Assembly: GCA_947165365.1 (NCBI GenBank)
Contig: CAMVAF010000004.1
Span: 289-64,288, forward strand
Direction: 5' to 3'
Source: an uncultured Clostridia bacterium
Lineage (GTDB): Bacteria; Bacillota_I; Bacilli_A; RF39; UBA660
Length of the DNA: 64,000 bases
The stretch's first letter is position 1; each line of letters begins with the position of its first letter. Below the pieces are notes generated by a model. That model saw only the letters and a list, made by a program, of their open reading frames with translations. It was not told where the DNA came from and ran no database searches. Below are positions 47,475 to 51,248 of the stretch, piece by piece. Position numbers and translations under genes: made by a program.

Positions 47475-47786
47475 TTATTGTTCATAAATATCGACTTTCC
47501 TATTTTTATTTCTTAATAGTCTCATTCTTTTTTCTTCTTCTTCATCAAGTTCTACTGCTTTAACAGATACTTTTTGGGCAATACTTCTTAAATTCCCAAC
47601 AATAGCCTCTTTAGCACTTTGAATACCACTTAATCTTGATGAAACATTAGAACAAATTACATCAGTTGAATAATTAGCAATTTCGCTTTGAATGCCGCTA
47701 CACTTCCCATCTATTCCAGATAAAGAACCAGCAACAGATCCTATTGCACCACTAAAAGCAGCAGCTTGTGCCATATACTTTCCCAT
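47475..47786 (-). CDS. small G/S/A-rich helical protein (103 aa), last gene of the sipW operon
   Basis: MGKYMAQAAAFSGAIGSVAGSLSGIDGK...SGIQSAKEAIVGNLRSIAQKV. The start overlaps the upstream stop (TAATG). Confidence 0.55.
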   Translation of the reverse strand: MGKYMAQAAAFSGAIGSVAGSLSGIDGKCSGIQSEIANYSTDVICSNVSSRLSGIQSAKEAIVGNLRSIAQKVSVKAVELDEEEEKRMRLLRNKNRKVDIYEQ

Positions 47787-48076
47787 TATTTCACCAAATC
47801 TCCTATTCTATCTTTTGTTTCTATATAAATATTCGAAAAATCAAATAATTTATCAGCAATCTCCTCATTATTTTTTATTATTTTATTTTTTTCTTTTTCT
47901 TGTTCCTGGACCATAAAGCTTCGAAACAACTCTCCAGCGTCTGATATTAACATTTCTTCATAATTAATTGTTGCCTGAGATATATTAGAAACAATATCTA
48001 ATAACTTTTCACTTTCAGTCTTCAAAACATTAGATAAATCAGAAAGAGTTTCCGCTGTTACACTGACCTTATCCAT
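47786..48076 (-). CDS. WXG100/LXG-associated-like small helical protein (96 aa)
   Basis: MDKVSVTAETLSDLSNVLKTESEKLLDIVSNISQATINYEEMLISDAGELFRSFM. AAGGTGGTG RBS. ~100-aa two-helix pattern with a central xDAGxxF turn and no Trp. Confidence 0.55.
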   Translation of the reverse strand: MDKVSVTAETLSDLSNVLKTESEKLLDIVSNISQATINYEEMLISDAGELFRSFMVQEQEKEKNKIIKNNEEIADKLFDFSNIYIETKDRIGDLVK

Positions 48077-48453
48077 CTAGCACCACCTTTCGTATTTTCA
48101 TCGTCATTCTTCCGATATTCATGATTTATGTTTGCAACAGTTTCTTCATAACGATATAGTGTTCTTTCCAGATAATTCATAAGTTTGGTCATACGATTAA
48201 TATACGCCAAATAATCTTTTATCATATCATTATATTTTTCTATCATAATAACATAATTATCACTTTCCCATTGAAGTTTATTTTTTTCATTATCTAAATA
48301 TCTTACTATATCAGTAAAATCATCAATATAGCGTGATACCAAATTAACATATTCTTCTATTTTATCTCCTTTTACTACAAGTTTATCCATAGACACCTCT
48401 ATCTTAACATTAATTATATCACAAACATTTCTAAAAGAAAACCTATTTTTCAT
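48058..48453 (-). CDS. WXG100-like small helical protein (131-aa ORF; 110 aa from ATG 48390)
   Basis: MDKLVVKGDKIEEYVNLVSRYIDDFTDIVRYLDNEKNKLQWESDNYVIMIEKYNDM. Central W-E-S in place of W-x-G. Confidence 0.55.
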   Translation of the reverse strand: MKNRFSFRNVCDIINVKIEVSMDKLVVKGDKIEEYVNLVSRYIDDFTDIVRYLDNEKNKLQWESDNYVIMIEKYNDMIKDYLAYINRMTKLMNYLERTLYRYEETVANINHEYRKNDDENTKGGARWIRSV

Positions 48454-48853
48454 CTTTTTTTAAAAATAATAATACGTTTCCCAATAATATTAAATAACAC
48501 ATAATTTTAATTCCATCTAAATTATTTATAAAGTAATAAAAATTCATTTTAGCATCAATCCACAAAACCATATCGCTATCAAAAATAGTACGGTAATCAA
48601 TAACAATAATGGCAATTATTCCTAAAATAGATGCTAAATTAAATAAAATATTATCTTTTACCTTATCTTTAAATAAACTCAAAACAAAAAAAAGTAAAAT
48701 TAAAAATAAAGGTATTCCTATTACCAGAATATTTACAACATCTCGATGATAATAATCATTTAAAGAAAATAAAATATACAAAGTTAAAGTAAATGCTATA
48801 ATTAAAAAAATTATTTTTGAATAAAATAAACAAGAATTAATACCTTTTTTCAT
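48443..48853 (-). CDS. four-TM membrane protein (136 aa), sipW operon
   Basis: Four hydrophobic segments. ATGA overlap with the upstream stop. Confidence 0.6.
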   Translation of the reverse strand: MKKGINSCLFYSKIIFLIIAFTLTLYILFSLNDYYHRDVVNILVIGIPLFLILLFFVLSLFKDKVKDNILFNLASILGIIAIIVIDYRTIFDSDMVLWIDAKMNFYYFINNLDGIKIMCYLILLGNVLLFLKKDEK

Positions 48854-49425
48854 ATATTATCACTCATTTCCAAAATGATTTCTGATAACTGTAAATAATT
48901 ATTAACAATCATTTGATATTGTTCATTTATAGCATCCCTAATATCATTATTTAAAACATCATATTGATAATTACTATTATTTTCTAATTCACGACAAATA
49001 TAATTAGCATTATTAATTAAATTATAAATATATTTATCAACTATTTTGTCCACTTGATTATTAACTTTAATACTACTAATATAGCCATCATTTATAATAG
49101 TATCTAAAAAATAATTATTTAAAAAATATAAATCTTTATATCTTAGTTTATCTCCAGGAATTTTTTTATATAGTCCATCATTTTTCATCAGATAAACTAT
49201 TCTCTTATATGTATTATTTGAAGAGTTATTAAAAGCATTTTCTAATTTTATAATATTATCTTTAAATTTAATTAAATTGTGATCTTTATCACTTACAAAT
49301 ACTTCTTTATTTAAATATCTTGCGTGATTAATATTAATAATTATCGTATATGACGATAATATTATTAAAATACCACATATAGTATACATAATTATTTCTG
49401 TATATTCTTTAAGAAATGCTTTCAT
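48850..49425 (-). CDS. N-terminally anchored helical N-rich protein (191 aa), sipW operon
   Basis: TM segment IIMYTICGILIILSSYTIIINI. AAGGGA RBS. It overlaps the upstream gene end. Confidence 0.6.
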   Translation of the reverse strand: MKAFLKEYTEIIMYTICGILIILSSYTIIININHARYLNKEVFVSDKDHNLIKFKDNIIKLENAFNNSSNNTYKRIVYLMKNDGLYKKIPGDKLRYKDLYFLNNYFLDTIINDGYISSIKVNNQVDKIVDKYIYNLINNANYICRELENNSNYQYDVLNNDIRDAINEQYQMIVNNYLQLSEIILEMSDNI

Positions 49426-49945
49426 TTTGTTCCCTTAAAACAACTGAATAATGATAATGTTTTTTTAAAGTATCAATAGAATCATCTGCTATATAAATTT
49501 TTAATGAGTAATCATTAGTTTTATTGCCTAAAACCTTATTACTATCTAAAACATTATCTTTTAAATTATCTAATTTACCACTTTTTATTAATTTATTATC
49601 TAACCTTAATTCATATGATAATTCATTTTTATTCAAGAAGGTATCACTACTACACCCATCCTGTGCTTCACTTGGACTAACTTCTTGAAATTCCAATACA
49701 TAACTTGCTTCTTCTTTAAGATTATTTTTAACACGGAAATAGTATACTGGTATATTGCCATCATCATCTTTAGGAACAGCGTTAAGATATGTAATAGATC
49801 CATTATTTAAAAGTTGTAGCCTAACATTATCAGCAAGCATTTTACCTTCTCTTTGATCAAAATAAATATACCAAAAATAACCACCAGCAATTGTAAAAGC
49901 AATCATGCTAATAAAAGCAATTCTAAGCATTAATAACCTTTTCAT
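49409..49945 (-). CDS. minimal TasA-like module protein (178 aa)
   Basis: GGAGG lies 8 nt before the ATG at 49945. Leader MKRLLMLRIAFISMIAFTIAGGYFWYIYFDQ. ITYLNAVPKDDDG, YYFRVKNN and NDYSLKIYIADD are shared with the other family members. Confidence 0.65.
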   Translation of the reverse strand: MKRLLMLRIAFISMIAFTIAGGYFWYIYFDQREGKMLADNVRLQLLNNGSITYLNAVPKDDDGNIPVYYFRVKNNLKEEASYVLEFQEVSPSEAQDGCSSDTFLNKNELSYELRLDNKLIKSGKLDNLKDNVLDSNKVLGNKTNDYSLKIYIADDSIDTLKKHYHYSVVLREQNESIS

Positions 49946-50528
49946 TTTTTTTGCCTCCATTCATAATATTTTTTACTAATTTATAAATATCCATTATGAT
50001 AATAAACAAGCTTGGCACCACGATTGCTAAAATCCATCCATATGATGTAACTAAAAAGTATTTAATATAACCAATCTTAGGAATTCTCATCACAACTTTT
50101 CCCATTATTTGACCTAATTCAATAGGACTACGATCAACAGTTTCATTATGATCTCCTTTAGTTACATATATTTTCTTACCATTTTCTTCTTTAACATCAA
50201 CAATTCTATGAGTTATTAAAACTCCATAATAACTAGGATCAGTTGCTCGATATGTTACAACATCTCCTTGTTTTAATTCTTTATCAGTATCTACCCTTTT
50301 AATTAACACAGCATCTTTTATTTTTATTAATGGTTCCATACTACCAGATACAATAACATAAGCTCCATATAATGGTGTTTCCAAATTCTTCGTTTTAAAT
50401 TTAAAATCAACAAAATAAACAGCAAGTAAAACACCAACACCAATTAAAAGTACTAAAACAGAATACATCAAAATACTTATCATATAGTTAAATAACCATT
50501 TAACCTCTTCAAATACTTTTTTCATCAT
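49923..50528 (-). CDS. sipW: signal peptidase I, archaeal/ER (SipW) type (201 aa)
   Basis: N- and C-terminal TM segments. Catalytic motifs VSGSMEPLI, GVLITHRIV and TKGDHNETVDRSP. Confidence 0.85.
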   Translation of the reverse strand: MMKKVFEEVKWLFNYMISILMYSVLVLLIGVGVLLAVYFVDFKFKTKNLETPLYGAYVIVSGSMEPLIKIKDAVLIKRVDTDKELKQGDVVTYRATDPSYYGVLITHRIVDVKEENGKKIYVTKGDHNETVDRSPIELGQIMGKVVMRIPKIGYIKYFLVTSYGWILAIVVPSLFIIIMDIYKLVKNIMNGGKKNEKVINA

Positions 50529-50534
50529 AAACCT

Positions 50535-51248
50535 CTAAAATGTGCTATTTGCATAAACATTTACTCTTGCGACAATAGAACGTTCTTCATAATTTTGATT
50601 AACAACTTTAACATCTTCTGAGATCCACATTCTCAAGGTATAATCTTTATATCCTCTTTTGGCATCTTCTGGCGTTACCATTCCGCTATAAAGAATTATT
50701 TCATCACTATTACCATTATATAAAGAATATTCGTTAAATGTTTTTATTCTTCCCGTTTCTCTAATACAATTAGGGATATCTACTCCTTCATTAACAAGAT
50801 AAACTTTAACCCAATCATTTGCTAAATCAGATTCCTTTAATTTTTCCAAAGTAATATTATATTTCACACCAACTGATGCATCATTAAAACGAAGTTTAAA
50901 ATTATATGTTTTATATTTTCCTTCTAATTTTTTACCTATTTCATCACTCGTAGGAAATTGATTAGTTAAGTAAATATAATCTCCTAAACTCTTATCTTCT
51001 GTAAAAACATATTCAAAATATGCATTCTTTTCTGTACTAGAATTATTATTACCATCATCGGTTTCATCAACTATCTTTTCAATGCTTTTAATATTATTTA
51101 TTGGTTGCTTAATATTATCATCGTGATAAAGTCTTTCTTTTAAATAATTTCCTGATAAACTTATTACTAAATAAATAGCAACAATCGTAATAAATATTAA
51201 AATAGCAAATAGTTTATTATATCTTTTTAAAACAGCTAATATTCTCAT
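50535..51248 (-). CDS. minimal TasA-like module protein with N-terminal anchor (237 aa), first gene of the sipW operon
   Basis: AAGGTAGG RBS. TM segment LFAILIFITIVAIYLVISL. YIYLTNQFPTSDE and YKDYTLRMWISEDVKVV match TYKLRMWVSDKVLIS of the 865-aa protein. Confidence 0.65.
   Translation of the reverse strand: MRILAVLKRYNKLFAILIFITIVAIYLVISLSGNYLKERLYHDDNIKQPINNIKSIEKIVDETDDGNNNSSTEKNAYFEYVFTEDKSLGDYIYLTNQFPTSDEIGKKLEGKYKTYNFKLRFNDASVGVKYNITLEKLKESDLANDWVKVYLVNEGVDIPNCIRETGRIKTFNEYSLYNGNSDEIILYSGMVTPEDAKRGYKDYTLRMWISEDVKVVNQNYEERSIVARVNVYANSTF

Follow-up and report, generated by a model that had tools for sequence, protein, structure and literature searches.

Positions 47475-51248 of the DNA examined here raise the question of whether eight tightly packed genes encode a single surface-assembly system or two units that share a strand. 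The genes lie on the minus strand of contig CAMVAF010000004.1, within a window (the whole stretch that was analysed) of 64,000 nt that is AT-rich, at ~25% G+C. Called g1 to g8 in reading order, they comprise a predicted SipW-type signal peptidase gene (g2) flanked by genes for two small beta-sandwich proteins (g1 and g3), two membrane protein genes (g4 and g5) and a trio encoding small helical proteins (g6 to g8). The reading that we favour, with moderate confidence, is that of a composite locus, in which a conserved five-gene SipW/TasA-like surface-protein cassette (g1-g5) is followed by an orphan, portable trio of Lap/WXG100-like helper genes.

Gene order in homologous loci

The g1 family comprises 59 clusters in a 5.8-billion-protein collection. 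Its genome matches are rumen and gut metagenome-assembled genomes labelled Erysipelotrichaceae, Bacilli or Clostridia, and a metagenome scan added 53 loci. Homologous loci carry L-numbers here (L003, L007 and so on), and the window proteins were mapped onto their open reading frames (ORFs) with phmmer. Clustering of the SipW sequences at 90% identity gave 61 lineages, and the order g1-SipW-g3-g4-g5 is kept in 41 of them, with nearly all the others cut by contig ends. A single lineage (L003/L004) has only g1-SipW-g3, followed by uvrC. The cassette belongs to uncultured Erysipelotrichaceae-like Bacilli of the gut and rumen.

What follows g5 is far less constant. The next gene is visible in 35 lineages and is uvrC in 14, a DUF421/YetF-family gene in 12 and one of several unrelated housekeeping genes in 3; a large paralogue of the 428- and 887-aa proteins described below, an EssC gene and the g6-g8 trio are found in 2 lineages each. 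The two lineages with the trio are that of the window and its closest relative (L007/L105, 65% g1 identity). The original prediction treated all eight genes as one co-conserved system, and this did not hold: because the trio follows g5 in so few lineages, g1-g5 are co-conserved and the eight genes are not.

The trio is a portable unit, separate from the cassette, and stands in four other contexts in which no cassette is present. In L043/L044 it stands without a cassette, divergent from a gyrB-like gene, and in L101/L102 and L103/L104, again without a cassette, three trio homologues are followed ~20 nt later by giant proteins that have no signal peptide. An extended -10-like box precedes g6 in the window (Table 1), and a box at the same distance (GTGATATAAT or GTGATATTAT; GTGATAT[AT]AT) lies upstream of the g6 homologues in L007 and in the cassette-less L043/L044, so that the trio probably has its own promoter; a two-hexamer promoter scan does not report the g6 box. 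It is the conserved g1-g5 order, the rarity of the trio after g5, its occurrence elsewhere without the cassette and this box that lead us to read the locus as two units and not one.

The architecture in the window itself agreed with the original prediction. The eight packed minus-strand ORFs and their coordinates were confirmed, and the same eight products (237, 200, 178, 191, 136, 110, 96 and 103 aa) are called in an independent ENA assembly of the same organism. Successive genes are separated by 6 nt (g1/g2) or overlap by 23 nt (g2/g3), 17 nt (g3/g4) and 19 nt (g6/g7), with an ATGA overlap at g4/g5 and TAATG at g7/g8; the 52 nt between g5 and g6 are the sole real gap among the eight. The bounding intergenic region upstream of g1 is present, as is the terminator after g8, the stem of which measured 14 bp, and none of 200 shuffles folds as well as this hairpin. 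Promoter-like matches occur in the AT-rich window at chance level (59 found against 50.5 expected). The 191-aa helical protein with its membrane anchor (g4) and the four-helix membrane protein (g5) are likewise as described.

This packing on one strand, with the sole terminator after g8, is what can be said for all eight genes forming one functional system, in which the Esx-like trio would either be the cargo of a SipW/TasA-like fibre or help to anchor or assemble it. The same arrangement recurs in L007/L105, and read-through from g5 into g6 is possible because no terminator lies between them. We nevertheless regard such a system as highly improbable. The trio follows g5 in just those two lineages, stands elsewhere without the cassette and ahead of giant proteins, and has its own conserved -10 box; moreover, its three proteins have no signal peptides and therefore cannot leave by the Sec/SipW route.

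A DUF421/YetF-family membrane protein always follows g5 in a divergent clade (L011-L021, L088, L090, L093; for example L019:11853-12437). In L047 the cassette and uvrC are separated by a reverse-transcriptase gene at 13393-14664 (RVT_1, probably of a group II intron), which is next to an 805-aa paralogue; the slot after g5 seems to be a variable one that accepts insertions. On the other side, a formate-tetrahydrofolate ligase gene is directly upstream of the trio in L103 (L103:6303-8385), and in the window (52662-54320) and L105 the same gene is followed by a DUF308 gene, a hydrolase gene, the cassette and the trio. The block with the cassette looks as though it had been inserted between the ligase gene and the trio, or else lost from L103. 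Readings of the locus as a defence system or as prophage were set aside, since PADLOC and PHROGs scans of the eight proteins and the upstream hydrolase gave noise only.

Table 1. Coordinates of the eight genes and associated features in the 64,000-nt window
Feature	Positions	Strand	Description
g1, 237 aa	50535-51248	-	N-terminal transmembrane anchor, disordered D/N/K-rich linker, C-terminal beta-sandwich module (NQFPxxDExG ... LRMWISED)
g2, predicted SipW-type (ER/archaeal-type) signal peptidase I	49923-50528	-	SGSMEP, THRI and GDHN motifs and C-terminal transmembrane segment; TIGR02228 match
g3, 178 aa	49409-49945	-	Hydrophobic leader with Y-x-W-Y-x-Y-F at its end, then eight-strand beta-sandwich; best-conserved SipW partner
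g4, 191 aa	48850-49425	-	One N-terminal transmembrane helix and a helical domain; always after g3 (synteny)
g5, 136 aa	48443-48853	-	Membrane protein with four transmembrane helices; last gene of the conserved cassette (synteny)
Extended -10-like box TGTGATATAAT	48413-48423	-	Within the 52 nt between g5 and g6, with the g6 start codon ~23 nt downstream; candidate promoter for the trio itself
g6, 110 aa	48058-48390	-	All-helical; near-invariant central Trp (W-E/D-S); WXG100- or Lap-like candidate
g7, 96 aa	47786-48076	-	All-helical; most WXG100-like of the trio
g8, 103 aa	47475-47786	-	Coiled-coil-prone helical protein with charged C-terminus
Intrinsic-terminator-like AT-rich hairpin, end of trio	47444-47474	-	14-bp stem, -11.9 kcal/mol, z = -4.18
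Intergenic region upstream of g1	51249-51345	-	97 nt; sigma-70-like promoter candidate TTGACA-17-TATTCT at 51345-51317, a consensus match only
Divergent GH73 glucosaminidase-like peptidoglycan hydrolase (predicted), 196 aa	51346-51936	-	Membrane-anchored; orthologue matches to PF01832
DUF308 (HdeD-like) membrane protein	51956-52549	-	PF03729, E = 2e-16
428-aa paralogue	54511-55797	-	Leader end TYAFFNYTRTG, TasA-like N-terminal module, C-terminal extension; putative SipW substrate
865/887-aa paralogue	28179-30776	-	Leader end SYAWFNYVRVG, same N-terminal module, large C-terminal region; putative SipW substrate or adhesin

The signal peptidase and its beta-sandwich partners

Judged by its motifs and family profile, g2 is a signal peptidase of the endoplasmic reticulum (ER)/archaeal type, that is, of the SipW type. 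The motifs SGSMEP, THRI and TKGDHN noted in the original prediction are present in the translation and form boxes of Ser, His and Asp in place of the Ser/Lys dyad of bacterial enzymes; we take their catalytic roles to be those of the corresponding boxes in B. subtilis SipW. An NCBIfam scan placed g2 above the cutoff of TIGR02228 (96.8 bits against 51.85, over residues 26-181 of 201 aa). With 92.5 bits against a cutoff of 190, it falls below the Bacillus SipW equivalog NF046067, and the assignment is thus to the SipW type and not at the level of an orthologue.

The two proteins encoded on either side of g2 had been described as a hydrophobic leader plus a beta-rich domain, and AlphaFold2 models gave a beta-sandwich for both. 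The g1 model, with a predicted local distance difference test score (pLDDT) of 76, has a transmembrane helix at residues 3-40, a disordered acidic/Asn-rich linker at 39-74 and the beta-sandwich at 79-234. The g3 model (pLDDT 87) has a hydrophobic helix at 2-39 and an eight-strand sandwich, with an invariant aromatic motif Y-x-W-Y-x-x-F (Y23, W25, Y26, F29) at the end of the leader. Foldseek matches of g1 are weak and include AbpA (E = 1.9e-3, rank 2) and the TasA fibre 8aur_A (E = 1.2e-2, rank 18, TM-score 0.33). Those of g3 include AbpA 7ueg (E = 1.5e-3, rank 4), the TasA fibre 8aur_A (E = 1.7e-3, rank 7, TMq 0.42), chaperone-usher pilins and the Sulfolobus (archaeal) thread subunit; a g3 profile search against the PDB sequence set returned no match. 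In gene order, g1 and g3 flank SipW in 41 lineages, as the subunit genes do in a TasA-type operon.

A single module had been thought to be common to g1, g3 and two large proteins of the window. The part that stands is the link of the g1 module to the N-terminal part of the 887-aa protein, for which hhalign gives E = 1.7e-4 across 118 columns, and, through intermediate sequences, to the 428-aa protein, whereas between g1 and g3 the sequence link is confined to the last 31 columns, corresponding to the last two strands (E = 0.006). Across 20 paralogues the leader ends in the motif G-[VI]-[ST]-[YF]-A-[FA]-F-[NT]-Y-x-[KR]-x-G, and the strands that follow carry N-x-I-T-T-G-x-I, L-x-N-x-F-P-x-x-D-x-x-G, F-D-F-x-V and Y-x-L-R-M-W-[IV]-S-x-D. 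These leader and strand motifs resemble those of TasA, namely GGGTWA|AFND (cleaved G-T-W-A|A-F-N-D), ASGTLDL and NLKPGD. Sub-threshold profile matches point the same way: the 428-aa paralogue aligns with PF12389 (E = 0.0056, 17.0 bits against 22.5, profile positions 3-79) and with NF046066 TasA (E = 0.011), a paralogue in L047 aligns with PF12389 (E = 0.011, 16.0 bits), and 4 of the 20 module paralogues match the SipW-cognate signal peptide TIGR04088 (best E = 0.018), as neither g1 nor g3 does.

The module is used in proteins of very different size. It heads large proteins (428, 805 and 887 aa) with differing, adhesin- or enzyme-like C-termini, and such paralogues repeatedly adjoin the cassette (L007, L008, L016, L019, L047, L063, L065 and L072); homologues of the 865/887-aa paralogue flank it in L007, L016, L047 and L072. 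It also occurs alone: at L036:2507-5255 and L039:165-4762, four or five genes in tandem encode small proteins (~200-320 aa) that have nothing but the module behind a TasA-like leader (GVSFAFFTYSKTG). In L036, four small module genes directly precede SipW-g3-g4-g5 and replace g1.

Two further genes of the window, both on the minus strand, may be mentioned here. A 163-aa ORF at 26782-27273, which lies ~900 nt downstream of the point where the 887-aa paralogue stops, has repeated leucine-rich-repeat-like units at its end and may be a surface-protein fragment. At 3173-7066 there is a 1297-aa surface protein that has ten repeats of the SpaA prealbumin-like type, one SdrD B-like domain and a weak match to a thioester domain; it is an adhesin or pilin of the sortase type and has no connection with the cassette or the trio.

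Several results weigh against a TasA-like interpretation of the cassette. None of the tested proteins reaches the cutoffs of TasA/camelysin (PF12389, NF046066) or of the SipW-cognate signal peptide (TIGR04088), and g1 and g3 have no Pfam or NCBIfam match at all, those models included. The Foldseek values (E ~1e-3, TM-scores of 0.3-0.4) are ones that carbohydrate-binding modules, glycosidase accessory domains and viral capsids reach similarly. In the clade of the window the -1 residue of g3 is Phe or Leu and not a small residue, which makes its cleavage uncertain. Neither g4 nor g5 has a Pfam, NCBIfam or PDB match or any relative detected outside cassette synteny. Finally, when the module profile is searched against PDB sequences, it finds archaeal type IV pilins best (E = 0.011). 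The idea that the module belongs to a type IV pilin was rejected, because the match is mostly to the hydrophobic helix and genes for PilB, PilC and a prepilin peptidase are absent beside the cassette. The fibre logic that the original prediction drew from tapA-sipW-tasA is therefore retained in part: it has the SipW-type peptidase, the leader and strand motifs and weak structural matches to TasA and AbpA in its favour, but not membership of the TasA families. Because the TasA/camelysin thresholds, and those of WXG100 for the trio, are not reached, we say that these proteins may work like the known ones and do not call them members of the families.

The same weakness of the structural similarity to TasA, together with the very different large proteins that the module heads, suits a reading without any fibre. 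SipW would then be a dedicated leader peptidase for the large adhesin paralogues, and g1, g3, g4 and g5 would be membrane chaperones or retention factors. We think this unlikely, since the tandem arrays of small module-only genes in L036 and L039 resemble arrays of pilin or fibre subunits, and the invariant aromatic residues just past the g3 leader suggest a structural role for its N-terminal segment.

Under the reading that we favour, the Sec system would insert g1, g3 and the paralogues into the membrane, and SipW would cut the paralogues after the small residue of the G-[VI]-[ST]-[YF]-A motif, and with less certainty g3. The freed N-terminal strand could complete the beta-sandwich of a neighbour, as in the donor-strand fibres of TasA/TapA and archaeal AbpA. 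Because g1 keeps its transmembrane anchor and has a flexible linker that could span the wall, it may be the membrane-anchored base or acceptor subunit. The small conserved g3 might be a fibre subunit, a chaperone or a TapA-like nucleator, the big paralogues would be displayed adhesins, and g4 and g5 could form a membrane assembly or anchoring pair, while the hydrolase encoded upstream might open the wall locally.

The DUF308 gene and the gene for this 196-aa hydrolase precede g1 in all closer relatives (the clade-A loci) and are perhaps part of the cassette unit. PF01832 matches 7 of 17 orthologues of the hydrolase (best E = 3e-8), and the family profile matches the phage cell-wall hydrolase 8yxk in the PDB (E = 4.7e-7). 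The window copy has no Pfam match, and the Glu of the LES motif is missing from the L008 and L003 orthologues. It is possibly a dedicated wall-remodelling enzyme for the cassette.

Neighbouring genes also bear on whether the cassette builds a spore-associated structure instead of a vegetative fibre, in which case spores would carry the beta-sandwich proteins, inside or on their surface. TasA itself entered the literature as a protein found with spores and dependent on SipW. A few kb upstream of the cassette in L005, L006 and L046 there are spoIIIAH, gerE and a Germane (GerM-like) gene, and the DUF421/YetF-family gene that always follows g5 in the divergent clade can be counted on the same side. 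LemA and DUF2207 genes stand, however, between these sporulation genes and the cassette, and near the locus in the window the sporulation genes are missing; the promoter candidate is sigma-70-like, and no spore-coat family in Pfam or NCBIfam matches any cassette protein. We consider a spore-associated role very unlikely.

The helical trio and type VII secretion

The trio was proposed to be WXG100-like or LXG-associated, a likeness that recurs in independent orthologues without reaching family cutoffs. The window g6 aligns with NF035934 (ESAT6_2) at E = 0.0057 (16.9 bits against a cutoff of 100) and the L043 g6 at E = 5.1e-6 (26.6 bits against the same cutoff). For g7 the corresponding model is TIGR03930, matched by the window protein at E = 0.02 (15.1 bits against a cutoff of 44.85) and by its L007 orthologue at E = 4.8e-5 (23.5 bits, below cutoff), the latter also aligning with PF06013 (E = 0.003, 18.2 bits against 27.3). 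All these matches to WXG100/ESAT-6 models run from end to end. The proteins are 96-110 aa long; the g6 family, with 19 representatives of ~105 aa among 1.84 billion proteins, has a near-invariant W41 in W-E/D-S, and the central motif of g7 is S-D-A-G. No Pfam or NCBIfam family matches g8, for which a PDB profile search gives only generic coiled coils such as coronavirus HR1. A word-indexed homologue search with g7 returned near-identical sequences only, and a first metagenome scan with the g6 family, the full alignment of which was too variable, found no relatives.

The arrangement in the cassette-less relatives is more telling. Their trio homologues (of the L101 and L103 type) match the window proteins in phmmer at E = 1e-11 to 3e-15 for g6 and g7 and at E = 3.9e-5 for g8, and a g8-like gene directly precedes each giant protein. 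The giant after the trio has 2219 aa in L101/L102; contig ends cut those of L103 and L104, which have at least 1412 and 1509 aa, respectively. At L101:10001-20327 a 73-aa ORF comes after the first giant, and then another g8-like gene with another giant, and in L103 the trio and giant occupy 8050-13223. By eye, the first L101 giant has a transglutaminase-like Cys/His/Asp core near residues 1560-1612. Upstream of the L101 trio lies a gene for a 113-aa prepilin-type (N_methyl) protein, which a 159-aa ORF at 15016-15495 of the window (minus strand) resembles weakly (E = 4.9e-5); this ORF may be a pseudopilin gene.

From the recurrent profile matches and the position of the homologues before giant proteins, we propose that the trio is a divergent family of candidate type VII secretion system (T7SS) helpers, Lap/WXG100-like in character. 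Here, too, there are results on the other side. No trio protein passes a Pfam or NCBIfam threshold for WXG100, LXG, DUF3130/TIGR04197 or DUF3958, and the DUF3130/TIGR04197 and DUF3958 models give no match even at E up to 1. Profiles of g6 and g7 recover no WXG100 structure, and nothing significant, from the PDB sequence set; hhalign comparisons with WXG100 sequences place the central motifs in register, although without significance (E = 0.29 for g6 and 0.012 for g7). The giant proteins have no Pfam match on record and none in the PDB to the N-terminus that was searched, which leaves their LXG-like nature unproven.

As cytoplasmic, WXG100-related partners of the Lap type, the trio proteins would attach to the helical region by which a T7SS effector is targeted and would hand the effector over to EssC. 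In the window they would be orphaned. No giant follows the trio there or in L105, where gatCAB and RNase J come next, and the 64 kb hold no effector or immunity gene. That no EssC gene is near, as first noted, was corroborated in two ways: none is among the ten largest ORFs, and phmmer with the EssC of a relative finds nothing in the window.

An EssC gene does follow g5 in L008 and L045, two lineages with ~50% g1 identity in which the trio is absent. It begins 22 nt after g5 in L008 and 4 nt after it in L045 and encodes proteins of 1537 and 1535 aa with FHA (PF00498) and FtsK (PF01580) domains, which score 1062 bits on the Firmicute EssC equivalog TIGR03928 (cutoff 778). An 85-aa ORF overlaps the end of EssC downstream in both, the pair of genes lying at L008:7184-12051 and L045:12836-17697; the guess that it is YukD-like was dropped, as no family match supports it. 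With true EssC genes directly after g5 in two lineages, some recurrent SipW-cassette/T7SS neighbourhood exists. If the trio is truly T7SS-related, T7SS-type genes fill this slot in two independent ways, which is more than we would expect by chance.

One possibility is that a new T7SS subtype exists, for which the cassette supplies the envelope components specific to this lineage. In it, EssC and a small TsxB-like protein would be the motor, and g4, g5 and the beta-sandwich proteins would replace EssA, EssB and EsaA as membrane partners or as a conduit through the wall. Besides the placement of EssC and the overlapping ORF in L008 and L045, its supports are that within 10 kb in L045 Pfam recognises no essB, esaA or WXG100 gene, that T7SS-helper-like genes occupy the same slot in two other lineages, that the published subtypes c-j each have different accessory membrane proteins, some beside pilus genes (PMC11217815), and that secretion of the SipW/BsaA matrix of C. 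perfringens depends on a second machine, type IV pili (PMC11580942). Yet 31 of the 35 lineages have neither EssC nor the trio after g5, and none in the divergent clade does; the 85-aa ORF has no YukD match; and the slot also takes unrelated insertions, such as the big paralogue with the group II intron reverse transcriptase, as a variable region would. Because the EssC of L008 and L045 matches the canonical Firmicute equivalog, its ordinary partners may lie elsewhere. We therefore hold such a subtype to be distinctly unlikely, and equally so the version in which the cassette is the envelope part of an undescribed T7SS with an EssC motor and Lap/WXG-like helpers, the gene sets after g5 being remnants of one ancestral locus. 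A genuine functional tie between cassette and T7SS is, in our estimate, just as unlikely.

Comparison with known systems

On the reading of the locus as two units, the cassette would represent a widely conserved SipW-dependent surface-protein system of uncultured gut and rumen Bacilli, four of whose five protein families are unannotated. SipW/TasA-type systems are usually seen as three-gene units, to which g4 and g5 would be two new invariant membrane additions. Anchoring of a module protein in the membrane could account for the attachment of such fibres or adhesins in the absence of sortase. The trio, for its part, would add a divergent candidate family of T7SS helpers together with very large candidate effectors.

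The cassette shares several features with tapA-sipW-tasA of B. subtilis and sipW-bsaA-bsaB-bsaC of C. perfringens: an ER/archaeal-type signal peptidase encoded between or beside secreted beta-sandwich proteins, leaders ending in a T/S-aromatic-A-x-F motif, one minor or anchoring partner, a role proposed here for g1, and a predicted fold that may be compatible with donor-strand fibres (PMC9245690). BsaA oligomers of C. perfringens are themselves membrane-anchored (PMC11580942). Unlike these systems, the cassette has no protein that reaches the PF12389, NF046066 or TIGR04088 cutoffs, and it has the extra invariant membrane proteins g4 and g5, which have no counterpart there. The transmembrane anchor and long disordered linker of g1, the use of the module at the head of large multidomain proteins, and the syntenic genes for a GH73-like hydrolase and a DUF308 protein upstream also set it apart.

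In the number of genes, the archaeal abp operon of Pyrobaculum (abpA/abpB) is comparable to the locus as a whole. It has eight genes, encoding a TasA-like jelly-roll subunit, a TapA-like protein and several predicted transmembrane proteins (PMC9245690), and AbpA is among the best Foldseek matches of g1 and g3. It differs in having no dedicated signal peptidase and no sequence similarity to the locus, and homology among the transmembrane proteins is not demonstrable.

For the trio, the relevant comparison is with effectors of the T7SSb, which are encoded with WXG100-related Lap partners in a Lap/LXG layout (PMC10801868; also PMC11217815), and with EsaD of S. aureus, which has three partners, EsxB, EsxC and EsxD (PMC10653861). 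Both the Lap1/Lap2-LXG and the EsxB/EsxC/EsxD-EsaD modules have, like the trio, two or three ~100-aa helical proteins encoded in tandem. The trio differs from them in carrying W-E/D-S (g6) and S-D-A-G (g7) in place of W-x-G and in falling below the DUF3130/DUF3958, LXG and WXG100 thresholds, and the window copy further differs in its position behind a SipW cassette, with no effector, immunity gene or EssC. The homologues in L101-L104 come closer to the effector-helper layout: immediately downstream of them are genes for very large multidomain proteins that have no signal peptide, and small ORFs come after these.

The diverse, lineage-specific membrane proteins of T7SS subtypes c-j, some of them encoded beside pilus loci (Garrett, Higginson and Palmer 2024, PMC11217815), provide the comparison for L008 and L045. 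The described subtypes have no signal peptidase or TasA-like proteins, EssC adjoins the cassette in only 2 of 35 lineages, and these two loci have no TsxA (WXG100) gene beside it. Like those subtypes, both loci have an FHA-bearing EssC-type ATPase followed by a small ORF, as in TsxC-TsxB pairs, with lineage-specific membrane proteins at their flank. With T7SS parts beside the cassette in two independent lineages, there may be a lead here to the way in which a thick wall is passed by type VII substrates or by TasA-like polymers.

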